This document shows, in pieces, positions 42,795 to 57,917 of a DNA stretch of 64,000 nt. A program made the position numbers and the translations under genes. Origin of the DNA: a virus (Duplodnaviria; Caudoviricetes); the IMG/VR virus record IMGVR_UViG_3300005323_000003, positions 355 through 64,354 of that record; one strand, written 5' to 3'. Position 1 is the first letter of the stretch; each line of letters opens with the position of its first letter. The notes below the pieces were generated by a model. It was given only the letters and a program-made list of their open reading frames with translations, had not been told where the DNA came from and ran no database searches.

Positions 42795-45700
42795 ATGCCT
42801 ACTTTAGACGAATTGATGCAAAGTTACGGAAGAACTTCAAATAACGCAGACAACGGCGGATCACTTGACGAGTTAATGCAAAATTATGGCAGAAAACCTT
42901 CGTCCCTTGAATCTACTAAACAAAAAAATATGTTGGCTGGACTAGGAACAACAACTGCTAAAACAGCTAAAACCAATAAAATTAAATCTGCACAGCCACT
43001 TATTTCTAACCAGCAACATCAGTCCGATTTAAATAAATCGTTCGATCCAATTAATCCAATTGTACAAGAAGCCCTTGACATAAACGCTAAACGCGGCTGG
43101 AATCAAGAAGTAAATCTTGGCTATAAGCCGCAGGGCATAGCGGGTGATATTGAAACATCCAAAATATATCGCACACTAATTGGAAACCCAGCTAACGAAG
43201 GATTTAGTCTCGGAGAAATGCTTCAAGCTATATCAATGGCAACTCCTGAAACAGCAGCATTAACCAGCAGGGCAGGAATCGGAGCGGTTAACGCTACGGG
43301 CAAAATTGCAAAGCCTGTTGCTGATGCGCTTAAATCGATTGTTAAAAAAGCTCCAACGCCAGTTAAAAAAGCAGCTGGAATAGGTGCGGCTGTTACTGGT
43401 TATGAAACTGCCAAGGGCGCATCTGACAAGGATTACGTAAACCCTATAAGCGGAAACAAAACCCTTCCTTCTCAAACCGGCGCAAGTCTCCGGGAAGGAA
43501 CGGGAAAAATGCTTGAAAATATAGGTTATACAAAACCACTGAGAGACAGTAAACTTGGCAAAGACATAAGAGATACTGGGCAAAAAATATCTGAAGGATA
43601 CGAAGTAAACCGGCAACCTTTTACATGGTCATCTTTATTGGACCCGGATTGGTACGCCAATAATGCCGCCAGCAGTTTGCCGTCTACATTGGCGCTTATA
43701 CCGCTTATGTTTGCTGGATACAAGGGAACCGGCGCAATAGCCGGAAAACTTGGAGCAGGCCCATTTGCAAAAACAATTATTTCGTCTTTGGGTGGCGCTG
43801 CCATGTCAAGACCGGTTGAAAGCTCGCTTGAAGCAGCCAACACATATCAGCAAGTATTGAGTGAAACCGGCGATAAGGATCAAGCAAACAAAGCTGCTGA
43901 TATTGTTTTTAACAAAAACTTAAAACTTGCAGGATTAGACGCTGCTCAGTTAGCACTTGCTTTTGCGCCTTCGCCTGTCAGCAAATTAGGACCGGCAAAA
44001 TCTGCTGTAGCAAAATTAGTGGCGGAAACTGGGACGGAATCATTAGAAGAAGGATACCAGCAAGCCGTTCAGCAGCAAGCAAGCGGCGCAGACAAAAGAA
44101 GCATTGTACAGCAAATACTCAACCCTACTGCCGACATGAAAGAATCTATGGCAATTGGCGGAATATTTGGCGCAGGCATGGGCGGAGCCGGAGCCATAAA
44201 CGAATACATTGCAAACGTAAAAACAGAAACCATAAAAGCATTGCCTGACCAAATTATGCCACAGGTGCAGAACCGTATGAACGAACTTACCGCTTCCGGG
44301 ATTGATAAAGCAACCGCGCTTAATACTGTTTTAGATGAAGCGGCGCAAAATCCTGGTATGGCAAAAATTATATCTGAAATAGTTAAGCCAGAAGCAGAAA
44401 AAATAATTAGCAAATATTCTAACATACCTATGCAAATAAATTACATGGGGCAAGATATTCCTGAACCAAATTATAACCAACCTATTCCAGAGATTTCCCG
44501 GCAAGAAGAAACACCACAAAATAATAAGGTAACGCCACAACAAACAAAAATTACACAGCCAACCGAAGTATACAGCAAATCAACCGGAGAAAAATATAAT
44601 GTATTAGGTCAGCCAAATGAAAACGTTTTTGTAGTTACCGACCAGAACGGAAGCCGTATTATTGTCCCGGCCGGCGACGTTGAAACCAGAACTGCACCTA
44701 AAGAAGAAGTTGCACCGCAAAATACGCAGAATATCGAGCAAAACGTTCAGAACAAGGATATTCAACAGTCTGAGGTACAAAACATCAATCCGCAAGAAAT
44801 GCAGGCTTTACAGAACGAATTAGAGGCTGGCAATCAGCAGGCGGTATCTGAACAAACTGCTCCTGTTAAAAACGCAACGGAAAGCAATAAAATTGTCCCT
44901 GGAAAAGTAACCAAAGCAAAAACTGAACGTGGAACTTCTGTTAATTCTCAATATGCAGTAGTGGACGCAAATGATGTTATTGCTTCTCATTCTACTGGAT
45001 TAAAACAAAACAAAGAATACCCGCAAGAATTGCAGCCAAGAGACAGGGGCAGGATTGCGTCGGAAGATCAAGTCACAAGAATTTTGAATAATTTAGAGCC
45101 TGAATTTTTAGGTGAAAGCCCCAAGGCATCCGAAGGCGCTCCAATTGTTGGACCGGATATGGTTGTTGAAAGCGGCAACGGCAGAATCATTGCCTTAAAA
45201 CGCGGTTACGAAAATAACCACAAGAACATGGCGGCGTATAAACAATGGATAACCAACAATGCCGAAAAGTTTGGAATTAACGCTGAACAATTAAACAATA
45301 TAAAAAATCCTGTTTTAGTTAGAGTACGCCAAAGCGAGGTTAACCGGGCTAATTTTGTTAAGGAAGCAAACGAGCAATCTGTGGCTGCTATGAGTGCAAC
45401 TGAGCAAGCCATGTCTGACGGTAAAAAACTTACTTCCGGGCTTATGTCCAGGTTTTTCCCATCAGATAACGGCGACGTACTGGCGGCATCAAATCGTGGA
45501 TTTATCGGTGATTTTGTTAAGGAAGTTATTGGCCCTTCTGAACGCGGACGCTACATAACTGCTGACGGTTCAATATCTCAGGAAGGAGCAACCAGAATAA
45601 GAAATGCTGTTTTTTCCAAGGCATATGGGAACATTGAGTCAATTGAAAAACTAGCGGAAAGCACAGATGACAACATTAAAAACATAACAAATGCAATGCT

Positions 45701-48700
45701 GATAACTGCTCCTATATTTGCAAAAATGAAAACAGCTATTGAATCAGGTGAATTGTATCCGCTCGATATCTCAGGAGAAATTGCAGACGCGGCTCGTAAA
45801 CTTTCTCAATTGAAAGAAGAAGGTATGCCGGTATCTGAATATCTTGGTCAGCAAAGCATGTTCGGGGAAGAACTGGAACCGCTTGCCAAAGACATTTTAG
45901 AAGTGTTTAATAAATATAATAGAAGCAGTAAAAAGATTGCAACAATTCTGAACGGATACGTTGACAACGTTATTTCTGCCGGCAATCCTAATCAACAATC
46001 ATTGTGGGGAAGTATTAAACCGCCAACCAAGGCAGAAGCATTACAGTCTGCTTTAAATGTATTGGAGGATACAGATGGAAAAGAAACACAAGCTACGCTT
46101 TTCGGAAACGAGGCCGTTCGTGGTCAAGAGATTGGAGAAGATAACACGGGATCGGCTGGAAAAGGAACGCAAGGAATCAAATTCAAAGCCGCCAAGCAAA
46201 ACGTAAACCAAACTGAAACGCCGGAGTTCAAAAAGTGGTTTGGCGATAGCAAGGTTGTGGATGAAAACGGCAAACCGTTGGTGGTTTATCATGGTAGCCC
46301 AAATGATTTTAATGTTTTCGATATAGAAAAAAGCGATGGCATGATATGGCTTGCAAGCAATATCAAATATGCCAATAAATTTACTAATGACAAAAGTACG
46401 CCAAAAGAGTTATACGCAAGCATCAAAAATCCATTTAATGCCAGTAATTTTCGAGGCGAAAAAACGTTATCATTTTGGAAAAATAAATTAAATAATGATG
46501 GAATTGATATAAGCAAAATTGATTGGGATAAGGTTGATTTTGCTCCACAGTACGGTAAATATTATTGGTATGACTTGTTACCTCATGCTGGCAATAATTA
46601 TGCTAAAACCGGAACACTTGACGCAATCAAAAATGCTGGTTATGACGGAATCATATCTCCATCTGAAAAACAAGAAGAAATTTCTTCAGGAAAAACTTTT
46701 GTTGCATTTTTTCCTGAACAAGTAAAATCAATCAATAACCAAGGCACTTGGAACGCAAATAACCCTGACATTCGTTACAAGGTAGAAAGGGGAGCTCAAA
46801 ATGTTTATCAAAATGAGTTCTGGCGCGAGAGCAATTATCCCTCCGGAACGACAAAAGGAATTAATTCAGAAGGGATTACTGAGACAGAACAAGGACGGTA
46901 CGTTCGACTTCTTGAACAAATCCACGGAACAGAACCAGGACAAGAAGCCTACAGAATAGTACCGGACGCGCTAAAAGACGAAAAGTTTTCTGCTGCAATC
47001 AAGATAGGAAACGAGATCGGATTAAAAGTTGTTCCGTTTGCTTATGCCAATCCAGAAAATGCAGCATTTGATGGATTTATTACGCCTGAAGGAGAAATGT
47101 TTATTGATGCCAACGGAACATTCTCTCCTGAAGCTATTGCATGGCACGAGCGCGGCCACTGGGCAAATCGTAACGCAATGGGATATGGTAATCTGGAATC
47201 GCTGGTCATACAACGCCTTGAAGATACCAACCCGGATGGAATGAAAAAGCTGGTTGAATACTACCAGGATCAATACGGCGGCACATACAATAAAGATGAT
47301 ATACTGGAAGAGTTTATTTCAGATATGTTCGCTCAGGCCTTCTCGAAAGGGGAGGCTTTTTTCACGGGCGCAGAACTGGAAGAACGGCTGAACGGGTATA
47401 TCAATGAAGTGCTTGCCAAGGTAGAAGAAGTTAACCGGTTAGGAGCTCAGAAGCAAGAAAAAACTGCTGCAAAGAGAGCTTTACCCGGTACGCCTGAGTA
47501 TCAAAGAATGATTTTGAGCGGGATAGGAACGCCGGTAGCCATGAAAGCGGTCAAGCAACAAGCAAAACCTCCGGGACCGGACACAAGTAAGCATATCGTC
47601 AGCAAACTTGAAAATAAACCGCTTGCCAACCAATTGAGCAAAGAAAACCTTGGCCGCATGTGGGGCAGATTCTACGGAAGATTTGTGGACGATCTTTACA
47701 AGCTTGATAAGTTTGACAAAGTAGTGCAAAGCAACGGGCGGCAATTAAGCGCGGCTGAAAAGGCTTATATGCTGGCAATGTCAAGCAGGTCTGCAGCGGG
47801 AACAGCTAAGTTCAATCTGGAAGAAGCAATGACTGACCGGGAATTTAACAAAGTTGGAGTTTCCCTGAAAAAAGTGCTTGAAAAAATCCCGGAAGGAAAA
47901 GAGACTGAGTTTAACGATTATTTGATTTTGCGTAACTCAATTTCCTGGATGCAGCAAGGCAAGCAAGTATATTCAAAAGAATACGGTGTATCCGAATATG
48001 TGGATAACATCGCAGCGTTAAGAAAGAAACTTGACCGCACGGACCCGGAAGATACCGAGGCACTAAGCGCACTTAATAAAGAAATTGACAACCAAATGAA
48101 TATGATCATGAATAAACTGGTTAAGCCGCGAATGGATTGGTATGAGAAAAAGATCCCTGGACTAAAGGCGGCGGCAAACGACCTAGTTAACTGGCTAAGC
48201 AAGTTTACCGAAACATGGCTGGTCAAAGATAATGGCCTGCTGACTCAGGACGCTTGGGACAAATTTAGAGAATCTCACCCGTATTATGTGCCGTTTTACC
48301 GGCAACTAAACGAAGTTGAAGAAATGAACGCTGGTAAAGGCATTCGCAGCGGTTATGCGAATCAACCGTATCAAACCAAACGGGCTAAAGGATCTCAAAG
48401 ACAAATAGTTGACCCAATAGAAAGCATAATTGAACAGGTATTCCGGTACGTTAACGCATCACGCCGCAACGAAGTTATGCAGACGGTTATCCATCAATTG
48501 TTATGGCAACCGGAAGAATTGGCTGGCTTTGCAGAGATTGACTTTGATGTGTTCAAAAATGATGCGCGCGAGGCAATTCAAGACTATTTATTTAACGAGG
48601 GCGTAGAGGGTGTTATTGACCGGCTGGACGAAGTTTTCAAAAAGCAGAATATGTATAGCAGCACCAAGCCAAACGAAGTAACCGGCATCTGGTTCGGGCA

Positions 48701-50297
48701 AAAAATAACGGTCCGCATTAATGATCCTGACTTCTTTGTTGCATTGACTTCTCTAGGACCTCCCGGACAAAACTTTTTAATTGATACGTTCAGGGGCATC
48801 ACCCGAGTAATGAAAACTTTGACCACTGGCGCAAACTTGTTTTTCTCCGGCCGCAACTTAGCAAGAGATTTACCAACATCCTATATCAACGGAAAAAACA
48901 ATAATCCGTTTACCTGGGCGATTGGCATTTTAGATGCTACACGGCAAATTGCAACCGGGGATAGATTTGGCGAAGATGACTATTACGAACTGTATAGGTC
49001 AATGGGCGGCGGCATGTTTGCGTCGGCATCTGCTTCCAACCGTAATGTGCTGAAAGAAACAAAACAAGCTGTTATGCCTGGCTATTGGAGAAAAGACAAG
49101 AACGATCCTGTGTCGTATGCCTACAAAAGTTTGAGTGCTGCATTTGAAGGACTGGAACGGCTAACAAGCGCGATTGAAAGCGCGCCAAGGCTTAACGAGT
49201 TTAAGGGCGTACTTGAAGATATCAATAATAGCGACTATGCCAAAAAACTTGAAGCAAAATACGCATCCGGAGAGGTTACTGTAAATTTTAGCCGCCGGGG
49301 TGAATGGGGCTATACACTGGATGCGTTTGTGCCGTATTTGAATGCTTCAATCCAAGGTTTGGAAAGATTTTTGAGATTGTTTAAAGAAAACCCAAAAGCA
49401 GCAATAGCAAAAGGAATGCTGGCAATTACTGTACCAACAATATTGTTGTATCTAATAAATCATGATGATGACGACTGGAAAAAAGTCAGCAAGTACACCA
49501 AAGATAATTATTTCTTAATTCCTGCTCCTGGATTAACAGGAACGGACGGCAGGAAAAAGTTCATCAAAATTGCAAAGCCGCGTGAATGGGGAGTTGTATT
49601 TTCAGATTTACTGGAAAGATCACTGCAGGCTTGGGAAAATAAAGACCCAATGGCATTTAAAGATTACAAACAATCTTGGTTAAATAGTTTTGCACCTGCT
49701 TATCGCCCGATATTTTCTCCATTTTATGATGTAAGGGCAAACAAAAATTATACCGGGATGCCAATTGTGCCAGCTTATATGCAGTATCTTTCACCGGAAT
49801 TGCAGTACGATGAAACAACAAGCGCGTTGGCGTTGGAAATGGGAAAAATGTTAAAATCCTCACCCAAAAACATTGATTATATTTTACGAAGTTATTCTGG
49901 ATTCATAGGTCAGATGATCTTGCCGGCCATGTCAGAAGGCAGAGGCCAGGGAGGCGCAAGCAGAACATTTGAACCAATTAAGCGGTCATTTGTTGCCGAT
50001 CCGTTGTATTCAAATGATATAATCGATGAATTTTACAACATACGCGGCAAGCTAGATCAAGCGCAAACCGATTTTAAAGCAACAGGTAAACGCAACAAAG
50101 ATTACAACAATACGCAGCGTTTGGCTTTTAACAGAGTAGCAACCGATATAAGCAACATTAATAAACAAATACGCCAAATAAACGCAGACAAGACAATACC
50201 ATATAATCGTAAAGAAAAAATGGTTGAGCAGAAAAAAGCACAGGCAATTAGACTGGCTGAAAAAAGATTGGAGATATACAGAAAGGCAACAAAGTAA
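42795..50297 (+). CDS. Large polyvalent/ejection protein (2500 aa): ddrB-ParB-like, ART-PolyVal-like, HExxH peptidase-like and LPD38-like domains
   Basis: YAVVDANDVIASH...YPQELQPRDR...VESGNGR (~44.9-45.4 kb); FKKWFGDSKVVDENGKPLVVYHGS...GYDGII...FFPEQVKS (~46.2-46.8 kb); WHERGH (47145-47159); VNFSRRG...FVPYLNASIQG...IAKPREWG (~49.3-50.0 kb). Confidence 0.8.
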   Translation: MPTLDELMQSYGRTSNNADNGGSLDELMQNYGRKPSSLESTKQKNMLAGLGTTTAKTAKTNKIKSAQPLISNQQHQSDLNKSFDPINPIVQEALDINAKRGWNQEVNLGYKPQGIAGDIETSKIYRTLIGNPANEGFSLGEMLQAISMATPETAALTSRAGIGAVNATGKIAKPVADALKSIVKKAPTPVKKAAGIGAAVTGYETAKGASDKDYVNPISGNKTLPSQTGASLREGTGKMLENIGYTKPLRDSKLGKDIRDTGQKISEGYEVNRQPFTWSSLLDPDWYANNAASSLPSTLALIPLMFAGYKGTGAIAGKLGAGPFAKTIISSLGGAAMSRPVESSLEAANTYQQVLSETGDKDQANKAADIVFNKNLKLAGLDAAQLALAFAPSPVSKLGPAKSAVAKLVAETGTESLEEGYQQAVQQQASGADKRSIVQQILNPTADMKESMAIGGIFGAGMGGAGAINEYIANVKTETIKALPDQIMPQVQNRMNELTASGIDKATALNTVLDEAAQNPGMAKIISEIVKPEAEKIISKYSNIPMQINYMGQDIPEPNYNQPIPEISRQEETPQNNKVTPQQTKITQPTEVYSKSTGEKYNVLGQPNENVFVVTDQNGSRIIVPAGDVETRTAPKEEVAPQNTQNIEQNVQNKDIQQSEVQNINPQEMQALQNELEAGNQQAVSEQTAPVKNATESNKIVPGKVTKAKTERGTSVNSQYAVVDANDVIASHSTGLKQNKEYPQELQPRDRGRIASEDQVTRILNNLEPEFLGESPKASEGAPIVGPDMVVESGNGRIIALKRGYENNHKNMAAYKQWITNNAEKFGINAEQLNNIKNPVLVRVRQSEVNRANFVKEANEQSVAAMSATEQAMSDGKKLTSGLMSRFFPSDNGDVLAASNRGFIGDFVKEVIGPSERGRYITADGSISQEGATRIRNAVFSKAYGNIESIEKLAESTDDNIKNITNAMLITAPIFAKMKTAIESGELYPLDISGEIADAARKLSQLKEEGMPVSEYLGQQSMFGEELEPLAKDILEVFNKYNRSSKKIATILNGYVDNVISAGNPNQQSLWGSIKPPTKAEALQSALNVLEDTDGKETQATLFGNEAVRGQEIGEDNTGSAGKGTQGIKFKAAKQNVNQTETPEFKKWFGDSKVVDENGKPLVVYHGSPNDFNVFDIEKSDGMIWLASNIKYANKFTNDKSTPKELYASIKNPFNASNFRGEKTLSFWKNKLNNDGIDISKIDWDKVDFAPQYGKYYWYDLLPHAGNNYAKTGTLDAIKNAGYDGIISPSEKQEEISSGKTFVAFFPEQVKSINNQGTWNANNPDIRYKVERGAQNVYQNEFWRESNYPSGTTKGINSEGITETEQGRYVRLLEQIHGTEPGQEAYRIVPDALKDEKFSAAIKIGNEIGLKVVPFAYANPENAAFDGFITPEGEMFIDANGTFSPEAIAWHERGHWANRNAMGYGNLESLVIQRLEDTNPDGMKKLVEYYQDQYGGTYNKDDILEEFISDMFAQAFSKGEAFFTGAELEERLNGYINEVLAKVEEVNRLGAQKQEKTAAKRALPGTPEYQRMILSGIGTPVAMKAVKQQAKPPGPDTSKHIVSKLENKPLANQLSKENLGRMWGRFYGRFVDDLYKLDKFDKVVQSNGRQLSAAEKAYMLAMSSRSAAGTAKFNLEEAMTDREFNKVGVSLKKVLEKIPEGKETEFNDYLILRNSISWMQQGKQVYSKEYGVSEYVDNIAALRKKLDRTDPEDTEALSALNKEIDNQMNMIMNKLVKPRMDWYEKKIPGLKAAANDLVNWLSKFTETWLVKDNGLLTQDAWDKFRESHPYYVPFYRQLNEVEEMNAGKGIRSGYANQPYQTKRAKGSQRQIVDPIESIIEQVFRYVNASRRNEVMQTVIHQLLWQPEELAGFAEIDFDVFKNDAREAIQDYLFNEGVEGVIDRLDEVFKKQNMYSSTKPNEVTGIWFGQKITVRINDPDFFVALTSLGPPGQNFLIDTFRGITRVMKTLTTGANLFFSGRNLARDLPTSYINGKNNNPFTWAIGILDATRQIATGDRFGEDDYYELYRSMGGGMFASASASNRNVLKETKQAVMPGYWRKDKNDPVSYAYKSLSAAFEGLERLTSAIESAPRLNEFKGVLEDINNSDYAKKLEAKYASGEVTVNFSRRGEWGYTLDAFVPYLNASIQGLERFLRLFKENPKAAIAKGMLAITVPTILLYLINHDDDDWKKVSKYTKDNYFLIPAPGLTGTDGRKKFIKIAKPREWGVVFSDLLERSLQAWENKDPMAFKDYKQSWLNSFAPAYRPIFSPFYDVRANKNYTGMPIVPAYMQYLSPELQYDETTSALALEMGKMLKSSPKNIDYILRSYSGFIGQMILPAMSEGRGQGGASRTFEPIKRSFVADPLYSNDIIDEFYNIRGKLDQAQTDFKATGKRNKDYNNTQRLAFNRVATDISNINKQIRQINADKTIPYNRKEKMVEQKKAQAIRLAEKRLEIYRKATK

Positions 50298-51870: not shown

Positions 51871-51899
51871 AGGGGGCCGCAAAGGCCCCCTTTCTCTTT
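51871..51899 (+). terminator. Intrinsic terminator
   Basis: AGGGGGCC-GCAAA-GGCCCCCT then TTCTCTTT. Confidence 0.75.
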
Positions 51900-52082
51900 G
51901 AGGCACGCAGGGCAACCCGCCACGTTGGGAAAGCAGGAAAGTGCTGCAACACTTTTACGCCCCGCACAAACAGGGTAACACATTTATTGAACGTTGGGGA
52001 GTGATAATTTTGATTAACAAAATTAGACGGAAAAAGGAAATTGCATTTACCCCCATCATAATTTAGATGGGCGGTGAAATAG

Positions 52083-52433
52083 ATGCAAAAAAAACACATG
52101 TATGCTTTGGCCGCAATATTTATACTGGCCATGATTGGAATCGGTATTTTGTGCTACGAAATAGGTGTTCATAACGCAAAAAGCATAAACCAAACGCAAT
52201 CTCAGTCACAGGTAATTAACATTGATAGTCAGTACAACAACAATGAGAAAATTAATTTAAACACTGCCTCAAAGGAAGAATTAATGTTGCTGCCAGGAAT
52301 CGGAGAAATTTTATCTCAAAGGATTATTGATTATCGGAAAAACAACCCGTTTGATTCAATTTATGAACTGGTAAACATCAAGGGAATTGGAGAAGGAAAA
52401 CTCAAAGCTATTGAAGGGAGGGCTACGGTTTGA
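52083..52433 (+). CDS. Membrane-anchored ComEA-like helix-hairpin-helix DNA-binding protein
   Basis: N-terminal TM helix; [55 protein letters not shown]. Confidence 0.9.
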
Positions 52434-52810
52434 GCTGGGACGATGCAATAAAATTGGTATCTTTGTTTATTCCGATCATAGCAACCATTGTGGGACTTGT
52501 TGTATGGCTTGTGAAGGATATGCGGAAAGCCAGTGCGGTAAGGGAAAAAGCCAAATTAGAAAAGGAAAAGGAAGAAACCAAAGAAAAAGAATATCTCAGA
52601 AAAGAAGCTATCAGGCGAGAAGATTATATCATTAATCAGGCGGAAAAAAGAGAGACATTACTAATGGAACACATTAAATTGCTTGACGAATCGCAAAATG
52701 AAATTGCTTCTTCTCTAAGAGAGTTAGCGACAAGTTTACAAGAAACAAATAAGAAAGTAGATGTTATTCAAAATGATGTTCAAGAATTGAAAAAAAGAGA
52801 AGTTTGTTAA
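52430..52810 (+). CDS. Holin-like/accessory lysis membrane protein
   Basis: One N-terminal TM helix plus coiled coil; immediately before the endolysin. Confidence 0.6.
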
Positions 52811-52847
52811 GCCCAAATTGGGCTTCTATTTTTGAAGGGATGATTTT

Positions 52848-53501
52848 ATGAATATTATCAGAAAGCTTAGCCCCAATTTTACAGCCGGCCGCAATGGTAA
52901 AAAAATTATTGCTATTGTCAACCATCAGACTGCCGGCAAAGGAACCGGATCGCTTAGCTGGTTAAGCAATCCAAAGTCATCCGCATCCGCACACTATCTT
53001 ATTTATCGTGACGGAACCGTATATCAGCTTGTTAACGACTCAGACACTGCGTGGCATTCTGGCGCGGTCAATAAACCGTCCTGGACGTTGTACGACGAAA
53101 CAAATCCAAACCGGTACACAATTGGCATAGAGCACGAATGTTATCCAGAAGTAGGTGGAGATGGAAACCTAACCGAAGTGCAGTATCAAGCAACCATGGA
53201 ACTGCAAAAACAGTTAATCAAGACATATGGTATACCGATTGACCGTGAACACATTATTGGACATTACCAGATTGACAGCGTAAACCGGCCCAATTGTCCG
53301 GGAAAAGCATTTCCCTGGGAGAGGCTTATGAAAGATTTGAAAGGAGCGAATACAGTGGAAGATTGGAAACTAAAGATTATGGCGGAGGCAGAAGCAGAAG
53401 GATTGGTCATGCCTAATGTACATCATGCAGAAGAACCAGCGGACAAATGGTTTGTGTTGGCTGTAGCTCTCAATGTATTTAAAAAGGTGGTGGGTAAATA
53501 A
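52848..53501 (+). CDS. Endolysin, N-acetylmuramoyl-L-alanine amidase (Amidase_2)
   Basis: IVNHQTAG...SAHYLI...AWHSG...TIGIEHE...IIGHYQID...CPG. Confidence 0.9.
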   Translation: MNIIRKLSPNFTAGRNGKKIIAIVNHQTAGKGTGSLSWLSNPKSSASAHYLIYRDGTVYQLVNDSDTAWHSGAVNKPSWTLYDETNPNRYTIGIEHECYPEVGGDGNLTEVQYQATMELQKQLIKTYGIPIDREHIIGHYQIDSVNRPNCPGKAFPWERLMKDLKGANTVEDWKLKIMAEAEAEGLVMPNVHHAEEPADKWFVLAVALNVFKKVVGK

Positions 53502-53716
53502 TGACGATGACACCGGAAAAGAAAAAGGCACTCTACAAGCGTTTTACTAGCCCGGCATTTTATTTAGCTCTGCTGGGAGCAGTTAAGTTAATGACGGATG
53601 CATTTGGAGCAAAGATTATATCTGACGAACAAGTTAATGCAGTTGCCAACGGAGCGGCTACTATCTTTGCCACGATAGGCATATTCTGGGGCTACGAATC
53701 AAATAGCGAGCAATAG
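53501..53716 (+). CDS. Holin
   Basis: 71 aa, two TM helices, SPAFYLALLGAV...IGIFWG; TAATG overlap with the endolysin. Confidence 0.8.
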   Translation: MTMTPEKKKALYKRFTSPAFYLALLGAVKLMTDAFGAKIISDEQVNAVANGAATIFATIGIFWGYESNSEQ

Positions 53717-53789: not shown

Positions 53790-53817
53790 GGGGGCAGAAA
53801 TGCCCCCTCTATTTTTG
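53790..53817 (+). terminator. Intrinsic terminator of the lysis operon
   Basis: GGGGGCA-GAAA-TGCCCCC then TCTATTTTTG. Confidence 0.75.
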
Positions 53818-53822
53818 TTTTC

Positions 53823-54232
53823 TGCTCACTTTCTGCTCACACGGCTAAAATTTTATTATAAAAATTATCATGCAACGTGAAAGCATGACATTTAAAAACA
53901 GGTTAGAAATACCAATATTATAGCAATCTTTAAATTATAATAAAAAACACGAAACGTTAAAAATTGCTATTATTTTATTGAGAGTGTGACTCTTAATCAG
54001 AAGGTTGCAGGTTCGATTCCTGCATGGCCCACCAATTAGATATGCGGTATCATCGGGGATTATGGCAAGTAGTGTGAGCAGTGATTTTACAATTATTTGG
54101 AAACATGCTCACTTTTACATCACTCGTACAAACGTTCTCATGATTTTAGCTTACGTTTTACCTTGTATTTTTCAGATGGTTTTTTCTCTTCCGGGGGAGA
54201 AAATTGTAAATCAAGTTTGTTCACTTGCTCAC
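53823..54232. repeat. Putative integrase arm-type sites
   Basis: TGCTCAC at 53823, 53834, 54106, 54226 and inverted GTGAGCA at 54074. Confidence 0.65.
53987..54034 (+). other. att core: 3' half of tRNA-Lys(CTT)
   Basis: TGA-CTCTTAA-TCA anticodon arm, GCAGG-TTCGATT-CCTGC T arm, ATGGCCC-A-CCA end; no 5' acceptor or D arm upstream. Confidence 0.9.
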
Positions 54233-55304
54233 GCCGGCGGTCAATGTTTGGATTAATATAAATATCATTTGTGATAACAATAGTTGAGTGCCCTAATTCT
54301 TCAGACACATCTTTAGCTTCGGCCCCTCCTTCAAATAACAATGTTGCATGAGAATGGCGCAGATCGTGAAAGCGTGATTTTTCATTTAAGCCCAGCTTTT
54401 TCAAAACCTTGTTGTATTTTTTTGTTACCTCATTAGGATCAACCGGCCGGCCGTCATGCCAAGTTACAATTAAATTCTCTTCATTATAATTATCACCTTG
54501 AAAAACCTTTTTCCATTCCTCTTGTTTCTCTTTTTGTTTCAGCAATTCTTTTTTCAGAAATGGCGTTATCGGAACCAGTCTTCCTTTTCCGTTCTTAGTA
54601 TCTTCAATTACAATTCCTATACCGGTTTGTCTCTTGGCGCAATAATCCACCTTCAGCAGATCGTTTTCAAAATTAATTTCATTCCAATGTAAGCCGCAAG
54701 TTTCCCCGCGCCTCATACCGGTCATGATTGACAGTATAACAGATATGTACCGGGGATCATTCTGCATCATTTCAAATATTTTTGTTATGTCCTGGGCAGA
54801 TAACAACGTCGGGCGAAACTTTTTCTTTGACGGAGGCATTACTGAGTCGCATGGGTTATCATGCAATCGTACAGGAATACTTTGGTTAAATGCCTTCCGT
54901 AGTATCCGGTGATGGTAATTGATCGTTGTAGACGAAATTACAGCCTCAGTTTGCTTGTACTTATAATATTCGGCCAAATGAACCGGTGTTAATTGTTCTA
55001 GGAATATATCTCCAAGATACGGCTTGATATGTAATTTTATTTCTTCCTTATAAGACTTCAAAGTATTATAGGCAAGGTGCTGACAGCCTAGCTCTAACCA
55101 TGCGTCAAGAAACTTTCCGACGGTCAGATCACCTTGTCCGATATAATAGCCGTGTTTGGCCTCGTATTTTAGTTTTATCTCTTCTTTTCTGGCATCCTCT
55201 GCTTTTCCGTAAAAAGTAACGGTATGCTGATGACGCTTGCCTTCTTTATCCTTGCCTAATTCTATGACTATTTCCCATGCTTTGCCACGCTTACGTATGC
55301 TCAT
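54138..55304 (-). CDS. int: Tyrosine integrase
   Basis: Arm-binding N-terminus; TGMRRGETCGL, FHDLRHSHAT, LGHSTIVITNDIY catalytic motifs. Confidence 0.95.
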   Translation of the reverse strand: MSIRKRGKAWEIVIELGKDKEGKRHQHTVTFYGKAEDARKEEIKLKYEAKHGYYIGQGDLTVGKFLDAWLELGCQHLAYNTLKSYKEEIKLHIKPYLGDIFLEQLTPVHLAEYYKYKQTEAVISSTTINYHHRILRKAFNQSIPVRLHDNPCDSVMPPSKKKFRPTLLSAQDITKIFEMMQNDPRYISVILSIMTGMRRGETCGLHWNEINFENDLLKVDYCAKRQTGIGIVIEDTKNGKGRLVPITPFLKKELLKQKEKQEEWKKVFQGDNYNEENLIVTWHDGRPVDPNEVTKKYNKVLKKLGLNEKSRFHDLRHSHATLLFEGGAEAKDVSEELGHSTIVITNDIYINPNIDRRREQVNKLDLQFSPPEEKKPSEKYKVKRKLKS

Positions 55305-56567: not shown

Positions 56568-57917
56568 ATGTCAGACAAAGAAATAATTAAACACGGATCT
56601 TTATTTGATGGCATTGGCGGCTTTCCTTTCTCTGCATCAAAGTATGGGATTAATCCGGTTTGGGCAAGCGAGATTGAACTATGGCCTATCAAAGTAACAC
56701 AAAATCATTTTCCTAACATGAAGCATTTAGGAGATATAACCAAAATTAACGGCGCAGATATAGAACCGGTTGACATTATAACTTTCGGGAGTCCTTGTCA
56801 AGATTTAAGTGTTGCCGGGAAAAGAGCAGGACTGGAGGGACAACGAAGTGGATTGTTCATGGACGCAATTAGGATTATTCGAGAAATGCGATCATCAACC
56901 GGAGGAAAATATCCCCGATTTGCAGTTTGGGAAAACGTCCCTGGAGCATTCAGCAGTAACAACGGTCAAGATTTCCGGGCAGTCCTCGAAGAAATCACAG
57001 AGGCCGAAATTCCAATGCCTGTGTCTGGACACTACAACAAATACAAAGAATGGTGTATTGAATGGGCAGAGGCAGGAATGGTCAGAACTGAGTCAATTGA
57101 CGTTGCTTGGAGAACTCTTGATGCCCAGTATTGGGGTGTCCCCCAGAGACGTAAAAGAATCTTTCTTGTCGCAGATTTTGGAGGCCAATGTGCCGGAGAA
57201 ATACTTTTTGTCGAAGAAGGCTTGCGAGGGCATTTTGCGGAGAGCCGAAAAGCGAGGGAAGAAGTTGCCGCCACAATTGGAGATGGCATTGAGAAGTCAA
57301 TCGCAATAGATGTTTATAATTTTACTGAAACGGGCAATATAGCTGCTTGTTTTAATGCAAATAGTGGTTGTTCGCCAACCCACTCAGGACCAATGTTAAT
57401 GCAAGCCATCGGCTTCGATAATCAAACAGGTCAATCGGAGGGCATCGAGGTCAGTCCGTCAGTACGGAGCGAGTCACATGGTAGCTTGCCGTGTGTAGCA
57501 AGCCCCAAAACAACGAACAAAGTCTGCGGGTGCTTAAGCTGTGGAGCACACCCTGGAGGATTAAATGGGCAGGATGCTTATAATCATCTCAGTGGAAAAA
57601 TAACAGGGGCGCTTGATACATGCCGGCCGCAAGCACAATGCATAGCTTATCCAGATCCGGTAAACACATTACTAGCAAAAAGTAATTTATCTCATAGGGG
57701 AGATACAGATAACGTGGTTATGACTCATTACGCCGTCCGCAGGCTTACTCCCTTAGAATGCCTGAGACTCCAAGGCTACCCCGACTGGTGGTTGGACATC
57801 GAGGGAATGAGTGATTCAGCAAAGTATAAGGCGGTCGGAAATTCGGTAGCCATACCTTGCGTTGACTTCGTGATGAGCGGTATATCAAGAGTTTTATGGA
57901 AAGGAGCACTCAAATGA
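56568..57917 (+). CDS. DNA (cytosine-5) methyltransferase
   Basis: LFDGIGG, FGSPCQDLS, WENVPG, QRRKRIFLV, RRLTPLECLRLQGYPD, GNSV. Confidence 0.95.
   Translation: MSDKEIIKHGSLFDGIGGFPFSASKYGINPVWASEIELWPIKVTQNHFPNMKHLGDITKINGADIEPVDIITFGSPCQDLSVAGKRAGLEGQRSGLFMDAIRIIREMRSSTGGKYPRFAVWENVPGAFSSNNGQDFRAVLEEITEAEIPMPVSGHYNKYKEWCIEWAEAGMVRTESIDVAWRTLDAQYWGVPQRRKRIFLVADFGGQCAGEILFVEEGLRGHFAESRKAREEVAATIGDGIEKSIAIDVYNFTETGNIAACFNANSGCSPTHSGPMLMQAIGFDNQTGQSEGIEVSPSVRSESHGSLPCVASPKTTNKVCGCLSCGAHPGGLNGQDAYNHLSGKITGALDTCRPQAQCIAYPDPVNTLLAKSNLSHRGDTDNVVMTHYAVRRLTPLECLRLQGYPDWWLDIEGMSDSAKYKAVGNSVAIPCVDFVMSGISRVLWKGALK

Follow-up and report, generated by a model that had tools for sequence, protein, structure and literature searches.

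In the temperate phage genome analyzed here, the lysis genes are headed by two small genes that, judging by the sequence of their junction, are translationally coupled. The first (gene A) encodes a signal-anchored protein that is ComEA-like rather than ComEA, and the second (gene B) encodes a distantly BhlA-holin-like protein with a single transmembrane (TM) helix. The pair recurs, in the same order, in a cultured Clostridium phage and in metagenomic phage contigs with otherwise different lysis cassettes, and it also occurs as a natural fusion. These data suggest that A and B are an accessory pair of the lysis cassette, probably regulatory in role, which carries an unexpected sensor-type domain.

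Results

Phage Genome and Probable Host

The window, that is, the whole stretch of 64,000 nucleotides that was analyzed, is nearly the entire 64,354-bp IMG/VR record IMGVR_UViG_3300005323_000003. This record carries direct terminal repeats and is rated complete, which bears out the description of gene A as phage-encoded in the first-pass annotation. The phage is temperate, with a tyrosine integrase, an XRE-type repressor, and an antirepressor; a large terminase is also encoded in the window. The features to which the text refers are listed below (window positions, strand, and basis).

51871–51891, plus strand: terminator-like hairpin, GC-rich, between the antirepressor gene and A (8 pairs, 7 of them GC, and a T-rich tail)
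52041–52088, plus strand: RNA hairpin pairing the Shine-Dalgarno sequence (52070–52077) and the AUG of A (folding against shuffles)
52083–52433, plus strand: gene A, 116-aa signal-anchored ComEA-like protein (ORF, Pfam HHH_3, AlphaFold2 model, Foldseek)
52415–52422, plus strand: Shine-Dalgarno-like sequence AGGGAGGG for B, inside the 3′ end of A, 7 nt before the B start
52430–52810, plus strand: gene B, 126-aa single-TM protein, distantly BhlA-holin-like (ORF, TM scan, PHROG and Pfam matches of relatives, hhalign)
52809–52825, plus strand: small hairpin with a T-run overlapping the B stop, a weak terminator or attenuator (terminator scan)
52848–53501, plus strand: endolysin, N-acetylmuramoyl-L-alanine amidase (Amidase_2, 5.7e-30)
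53501–53716, plus strand: 71-aa holin candidate overlapping the amidase stop (phrog_297, 1.5e-5)
53790–53807, no single strand: bidirectional terminator-like hairpin closing the lysis genes (terminator scan)
53966–54028, plus strand: 3′ part of a tRNA gene, probable attP core, adjoining the integrase gene (Rfam tRNA, 29.8 bits)
54138–55304, minus strand: tyrosine integrase (Phage_integrase, 1e-24)

An exact search with the 51-nt attP gave no match, and the query had to be shortened to the 34-nt tRNA/attP core. Exact matches of this core were found solely in eight Syntrophomonas genomes, which makes a bacterium of this genus, within the Clostridia, the probable host. A megablast search with 18 kb of the window revealed no match among deposited phages.

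Two other genes were noted in the genome. The structural gene block ends with a polyvalent protein of 2500 aa (42795–50297) that combines ddrB-ParB, ART-PolyVal (ADP-ribosyltransferase), and LPD38 domains, and a C-5 cytosine DNA methylase (56568–57917) stands at the start of the early region.

The A–B Junction and the Lysis Operon

The TGA stop codon of A (52431–52433) overlaps the TTG start codon of B (52430), and the ribosome-binding site of B lies within the 3′ end of A, as had been noted in the first-pass annotation; a Shine-Dalgarno sequence in the same place was found at 8 related loci. The claimed coupling to the lysis cassette also holds, since the A–B pair heads the cassette and is followed by the amidase gene and then by the canonical-looking holin candidate. 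The latter scored 23 bits against TIGR01598, under the cut-off, and, judged by eye, probably has two TM helices.

The hairpin that pairs the translation start of A is very stable for its composition (dG of −20.4 kcal/mol, z of −4.8, with 0 of 200 shuffles as stable) and may serve the translational control of A; nothing comparable was found at five related loci. The hairpin at the B stop is likewise missing at that position in relatives, and in the four relatives scanned the plus-strand terminators lie solely before A or after the lysin gene, with none between B and the next gene. Given these two hairpins, the expression of A and B in the window may differ from that in the relatives. A TGnTATAAT motif was recognized by eye just upstream of A in two relatives, and no convincing sigma-70-type promoter was found between the upstream terminator and A in the window. 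The leader between the antirepressor terminator and A is unusually GC-rich at 51895–51975; an Rfam search of the leader revealed no known RNA family, and a clear promoter is absent there as well.

Gene A Encodes a ComEA-Like Protein

The span first annotated (52083–52810) covers both genes. Within A, the motifs on which the ComEA assignment had been based (INLNTAS, LPGIG, and KGIG) are all present, and the proposed order of a TM anchor, a short linker, and a tandem HhH was confirmed. The TM helix (residues 6–24, 52098–52154) is preceded by a Lys-rich N-terminus and followed by a Gln/Asn/Ser-rich linker of about 30 residues, disordered in the AlphaFold2 model, and by an (HhH)2 domain (residues 55–116, 52245–52430), with a Pfam HHH_3 match over residues 53–113 (E of 2.7e-19). 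The model, which was computed with an alignment of 44 sequences, comprises a helix at residues 3–34, disorder at 37–52, and a compact HhH domain at 55–116 with pLDDT values of 93–97. The top Foldseek matches of this model were the DNA-binding domain of Geobacillus stearothermophilus ComEA (8DSS_B; rmsd of 0.9 Å over 62 columns, 42% identity) and then 2DUY, a ComEA-related protein of Thermus, and a sequence search of the PDB returned the ComEA entries 8DSS, 8DFK, and 2DUY. The HHH_3 relatives PsbU and GspK appeared as weak matches. Among viral resources, no PHROG family matched A, the BFVD search returned ComEA-like proteins from giant viruses only, and PADLOC gave nothing meaningful for the window.

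ComEA binds incoming dsDNA outside the membrane during transformation. The scores of A remained below the curated cut-offs, both for the comE model TIGR01259 (57.5 bits against 152.35) and for TIGR00426, which covers the HhH region (38.3 bits against 53.1). In Gram-positive ComEA, an oligomerization domain between the anchor and the HhH is needed for DNA uptake and transformation (PMC9747964). A lacks this SLBB-like domain and has only the disordered linker in its place; for these two reasons we use the name ComEA-like. The absence of other competence genes stated in the first-pass annotation agrees with our search for the ComEC domain PF03772, which had no match in the complete 64-kb virus record, where the neighbors of A are lysis genes.

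By sequence, A comes closest to short TM-HhH proteins of clostridial cells, with about 40% identity along the whole protein. Their genes are found next to radA, in the vicinity of type IV pilus genes, or beside a PBP gene and a two-component system; these contexts are chromosomal, and no B-like gene was found behind any of these homologs. Each of four Syntrophomonas genomes encodes one standard ComEA of 207–216 aa with an extra domain between the anchor and the HhH, to which A is 41–46% identical in the HhH part only. In a tree of the domain, the phage proteins form clades of their own (the window with the contig L013, SH-aLRT 95; the other six, 90), apart from the Syntrophomonas ComEAs (98), in a comparison with host comEA of the kind suggested in the first-pass annotation; this is a quick tree of 64 columns, too few to tell one phage origin from two.

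Gene B Encodes a Distantly BhlA-Holin-Like Protein

The protein B starts with a short acidic N-terminus, followed by one TM helix (residues 10–28, 52457–52513), by basic residues immediately after it, and by a long Lys/Glu coiled coil; the predicted topology is N-out/C-in. The window's B itself reached no Pfam family, including PF10960, and tblastn of B against phage records gave no match. Its relatives are more informative. Four of six B homologs matched phrog_1625 (best 2.6e-10), annotated as ‘involved in bacteriocin production or immunity,’ which we take to be UviB-type. Short B relatives scored 16.7–18.3 bits against PF10960, below the cut-off of 22.6, and hhalign of the B profile with the PF10960-positive partner protein of the contig L050 gave a probability of 91%. 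Profile searches with B returned 12 matches in the word-indexed mode and 103 representatives in the exhaustive mode. Holin_BhlA (PF10960) was the most common Pfam match in the B family (18 of 102 representatives at E ≤ 0.01, best 3.8e-11), and Phage_Gp23 of Listeria phage A118 was the second most common among the same 102.

BhlA has been reported to act as a holin (PMC9527704), and B has the layout characteristic of this type, namely one TM helix at the N-terminus with a charged or amphipathic helix behind it, in N-out/C-in topology by the charge rule (scheme in PMC9527704). By its layout and profile matches, B is a distant member of a broad group of single-TM coiled-coil proteins that precede holin and lysin genes in Firmicute phages. 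The first-pass label of a holin-like gene downstream of A is thus sustained by the single-TM coiled-coil structure and by relatives that reach BhlA, with the reservation that the similarity is distant and that the window's B has no Pfam match of its own.

Recurrence of the Pair in Other Phages

The first-pass annotation had called for a survey of phage genomes for HhH_3/ComEA genes beside holin or endolysin genes and had allowed for a one-off capture from the host. Our survey contradicts such a capture: the pair was found in Clostridium phage CB452P1 and in at least 10 metagenomic IMG/VR contigs, in all of them directly upstream of a holin and/or lysin gene, and A heads the late lysis operon at every locus seen. 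In CB452P1, A (gene 29, 109 aa) comes directly after the tail fiber genes and overlaps B (gene 30, 155 aa), behind which are a holin-like gene of 68 aa and then the gene of a lysozyme-type lysin; according to tblastn (24 matches in 50,697 phage records), CB452P1 is the only deposited phage with a full-length A relative in a phage context. An IMG/VR scan with the single A protein returned nothing, and alignment queries were needed. These revealed overlapping A–B pairs in the same order in the contigs L013, L015, L026, and L028, and further pairs were found in L031/L032, L033/L034, L048, L050, L052, and L053. The A gene of L050 precedes an 81-aa gene for which a Holin_BhlA match is on record, and Amidase_3 comes next.

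Starting from B, an overlapping HHH_3 gene was found directly upstream in 9 of the 11 family members with known context (the window, L013, L015, L028-type, L031, L033, L048, L052, and L053). One of the other two, from a Mu-like phage, has no A-type gene upstream. The other, in a Clostridium botulinum contig (L035, 3347–3797), has an A partner of 54 aa that consists only of a Lys-rich N-terminus and a TM helix; this TM-only A overlaps B by 11 nt, with Amidase_3 behind. The A–B junctions ranged from −11 to +3 nt in all nine that were measured, each with a Shine-Dalgarno sequence inside A.

Five kinds of lysin occur near the pair (Amidase_2, Amidase_3, Phage_lysozyme, Glucosaminidase, and NlpC/P60), and Pfam-supported holins (Phage_holin_5_2 and Holin_6_1) were found at several loci. 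Such variation around a constant pair argues that A and B travel together between lysis cassettes that otherwise differ, and the presence of a separate holin-type gene in most of these cassettes indicates that the pair is accessory. For the one close pair of A genes available (CB452P1 and L031), pN/pS was 0.23 on 13 substitutions.

A Natural Fusion and the Membrane Topology

In the contig L029, a single 165-aa ORF comprises TM1, HhH, TM2, and a charged tail, and a GH25 lysin gene comes right after it. A relative from another sample (P0135 in L051, 88% identical) has the HhH joined in frame to TM2 and the tail before the lysin gene, which is followed by a Holin_6_1-like gene. Fusion of this kind links A and B functionally, and its layout puts the HhH on one side of the membrane and both the N-terminus and the charged tail on the other. 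Folding the fusion from its single sequence gave a model with a pLDDT of 60, which was discarded. The L051 contig also carries, just upstream of the fusion and beside a tail gene, a reverse transcriptase gene (864–1628) that may belong to a diversity-generating retroelement.

The charges around the TM helices give the same orientation for the separate proteins. The N-terminal flank is positive in every A (+2 to +6), and in the seven B proteins with a detected TM helix a neutral or acidic N-terminal flank precedes the helix, with basic residues behind it. The published topology of BhlA/TatA-like holins is also N-out/C-in (PMC9527704). Location of the HhH domain outside the membrane is the reading consistent with the charge rules, the fusion, and the BhlA scheme, and this prediction runs opposite to the cytoplasmic HhH that the first-pass annotation had considered as an alternative.

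The strict pairing of A with B, the fusion, and the TM-only variant together favor a joint membrane function with B over a free-standing DNA receptor. Accordingly, of the earlier designation of A as a membrane-anchored ComEA-like DNA receptor, we retain the anchor and the HhH predicted outside, and we consider the role of a free-standing receptor less likely.

Sequence Features Related to DNA Binding

Most members keep the core residues of the HhH and have one or more G-h-G hairpins intact, and the net charge and Lys/Arg content of the A HhH equal those of full-length ComEAs and exceed those of the cellular short forms. The most important lysine in a structural study of ComEA is K164 of the Bacillus subtilis protein (PMC9747964). 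The equivalent position, after the first hairpin, is Leu in the window's A, Lys in four of nine phage proteins, and Leu or Ile in the Syntrophomonas ComEAs as well. In L015, L028, and L031 the first Gly of a GIG hairpin is replaced or the hairpin is shortened, and these degenerate hairpins may bind DNA more weakly. The HhH is dispensable in at least one lineage, since L035 keeps the TM helix only. Among HHH_3 proteins, PsbU and GspK are extracytoplasmic and do not bind DNA.

Discussion

Comparison With Known Systems

A full-text literature search for ComEA with holin or endolysin and for phage-encoded HhH proteins found no description of this arrangement. A resembles ComEA (8DSS, 8DFK, 2DUY; PMC9747964) in its N-terminal anchor, flexible linker, and C-terminal double HhH without a connector helix, predicted to be on the outer face. 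It differs from ComEA in being half the size, in its presence in a phage without a comEC match, and in the position of its gene within a lysis operon, coupled to a holin-like gene.

The closest functional parallel is T4 lysis inhibition, in which the antiholin RI is believed to sense the periplasmic DNA of superinfecting phage, delaying lysis (PMC8385771; PMC11413866). Like RI, A is small and encoded with lysis genes, and it combines a membrane or signal segment at the N-terminus with a domain outside the cytoplasm (predicted in the case of A). No RI or antiholin family was found among the PHROG and Pfam matches, and no relation to RI in sequence or fold was found. Furthermore, T offers RI a large periplasmic domain to bind, whereas B is nearly devoid of an external part; the host in our case is Gram-positive.

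With regard to B, the short N-terminus, the short TM helix, the charged or amphipathic helix, and the nearby amidase are shared with the BhlA/UviB/TpeE holins (TCDB 1.E.27, PF10960; PMC9527704). In contrast to them, the window's B is longer (126 aa) and does not itself reach PF10960, and the BhlA papers that we searched describe no ComEA-like partner. Small bitopic coiled-coil proteins just before the holin and lysin are found in the XhlA-XhlB-XlyA cassette of B. subtilis PBSX and in the gp23-holin-Ply cassette of Listeria phage A118; the TM helix of XhlA is at the C-terminus, and neither system has an HhH partner. B is similarly a bitopic coiled-coil membrane protein that precedes the holin and lysin, but it differs from these proteins in having an HhH partner.

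Class II holins and pinholins, such as S21 68, have two TM helices, and in pinholins TM1 regulates the hole-forming TM2. The A–B fusion, with its N-in, two-TM, C-in layout, is like a class II holin, except that the helices usually reside on separate proteins and that the connecting loop is a folded 60-residue domain of DNA-binding type.

A Proposed Two-Part Membrane Module

Our preferred reading, which we offer tentatively and with somewhat more doubt than conviction, is that A and B constitute, in a set of phages of Clostridia-type Firmicutes, a two-part membrane module in which A regulates or co-assembles with B, and the outward domain binds DNA or another polyanion, shifting the timing of lysis. 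The two proteins would be produced together through translational coupling and would associate via their TM helices, giving a two-piece copy of the TM1-loop-TM2 layout of the fusion, so that A could regulate the BhlA-like B, co-assemble with it, or complete it. On its tether of about 30 residues, the outward domain would stay close to the membrane and would there bind dsDNA or another polyanion. In a non-competent Gram-positive cell, dsDNA at this site would mainly be that of a superinfecting phage under injection, or DNA from lysed neighbors or from wall opening. Its binding would then alter the timing of hole formation, comparable to T4 lysis inhibition. What speaks against this mechanism is that B has almost no external part, which excludes an ectodomain contact of the RI-T type; any coupling between A and B must run through the TM helices, much as TM1 regulates TM2 in pinholins. 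The Leu at the K164 position, the degenerate hairpins of some relatives, the PsbU and GspK proteins, the TM-only A of L035, the two window-specific hairpins, and the missing Pfam match of the window's B likewise weigh against the proposed module.

A more specific version of this module, a DNA-sensing lysis switch of Clostridia phages in which the ComEA-type domain detects the DNA of superinfecting phages or of neighbors and retunes a BhlA-type holin via the TM helix, is in our opinion unlikely as it stands. If true, it would mean that a counterpart of T-even lysis inhibition has evolved independently and that its DNA sensor can be identified.

Alternative Explanations

The outward HhH could instead act as a late superinfection-exclusion factor or DNA trap that catches injected or transforming DNA and blocks its entry, with B merely co-expressed. 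The ComEA-type fold and the predicted outward topology fit such a role, and Firmicute phages commonly encode exclusion proteins anchored in the membrane. The missing oligomerization domain (PMC9747964) would allow A to bind DNA without promoting its uptake, and host ComEA has been proposed, from resistance mutations, as the receptor of one Enterococcus phage (PMC9009173, in the account given in PMC11510935). However, the exclusion genes known from temperate Firmicute phages belong to the lysogeny module, with expression in lysogens, whereas A heads a late lysis operon; no PADLOC match was found, and the strict pairing with B, the A–B fusion, and the TM-only variant coupled to B would be left unexplained. 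We therefore regard an exclusion or trap function as unlikely too.

The domain may also have no affinity for DNA, serving as a structural or oligomerizing loop, or as a binder of an anionic wall polymer of the teichoic acid type, that positions or stabilizes a BhlA-like holin complex at the membrane–wall interface. The degenerate hairpins in several relatives, the missing K164 equivalent in the window, the extracytoplasmic location of the non-DNA-binding PsbU and GspK, which are weak matches to A, and the loss of the HhH in L035 are all in line with this. The opposite is suggested by the retention in most members of the HhH core and of one or more intact G-h-G hairpins, by charge and Lys/Arg content equal to those of full-length ComEAs, and by the closest structures, which are by a clear margin the DNA-binding domains of ComEA. 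On balance, such a non-DNA role appears quite unlikely.

A function after lysis, in which A in membrane debris would tie up released host and phage DNA and thereby lower the viscosity of the lysate around virions or shape biofilm DNA, is improbable: co-expression with the lysis genes and a DNA-binding fold predicted outside the membrane would suit it, but it has no precedent in the literature searched and does not account for the strict pairing with B, the fusion, or the TM-only variant. Finally, that A is a recent, functionless capture of host comEA, carried as a passenger, can practically be dismissed despite the 41–46% HhH identity to Syntrophomonas ComEA, since the architecture differs (116 aa against 207–216 aa, with no SLBB/oligomerization domain), the domain tree separates the clades, at least 11 phage lineages conserve the coupling to B, and the one close pair shows signs of purifying selection.

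Implications for Phage Lysis

The timing of lysis determines phage fitness. To our knowledge, almost nothing is known, beyond the T-even phages and ICP1, about phages that sense their surroundings to adjust lysis. The two-part module, in which a familiar DNA-binding fold predicted to lie outside the membrane is tied to a holin-like protein, offers a candidate signal input for the phages of Gram-positive bacteria. The layout of the pair and of the fusion further suggests that BhlA-like proteins can make up half of a two-helix unit that is divided between two proteins. In addition, small ‘hypothetical’ genes that head lysis cassettes gain a name and a partner. Because CB452P1 is a cultured phage with a known host, C. 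butyricum BSC452, and carries the module, genetic experiments are feasible.

Other Phage-Associated HhH Proteins

Several candidates were set aside during the survey. The record MT835804.1 (L012, ‘Bacteriophage sp.’) was rejected as a phage relative on account of its bacterial-looking DNA, which encodes a D-Ala-D-Ala carboxypeptidase/PBP, a response regulator, and a histidine kinase; the gene order in this unverified record is that found around the cellular short ComEA homolog P0027. Streptococcus phages with comEC-named genes and Listeria fragments were taken, by name and record type, for short fragments or for host genes at the borders of prophages. L014 and L019 carry full-length host ComEA at contig ends, and the HhH domains of L017, L020, L021, L022, and L023 are soluble and encoded close to head or tail genes. 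Two further contigs, L016 and L018, were set aside as encoding two-TM proteins with a predicted cytoplasmic HhH. In both of these contigs (L016, 1117–2202; L018, 3113–4213), a gene for a B-like single-TM coiled-coil protein is followed, two genes on, by one for a 160-aa protein with two TM helices, a very basic stretch, and the C-terminal HhH on the predicted cytoplasmic side, which looks like a holin-like two-TM protein fused to a DNA-binding-type domain on the inside.
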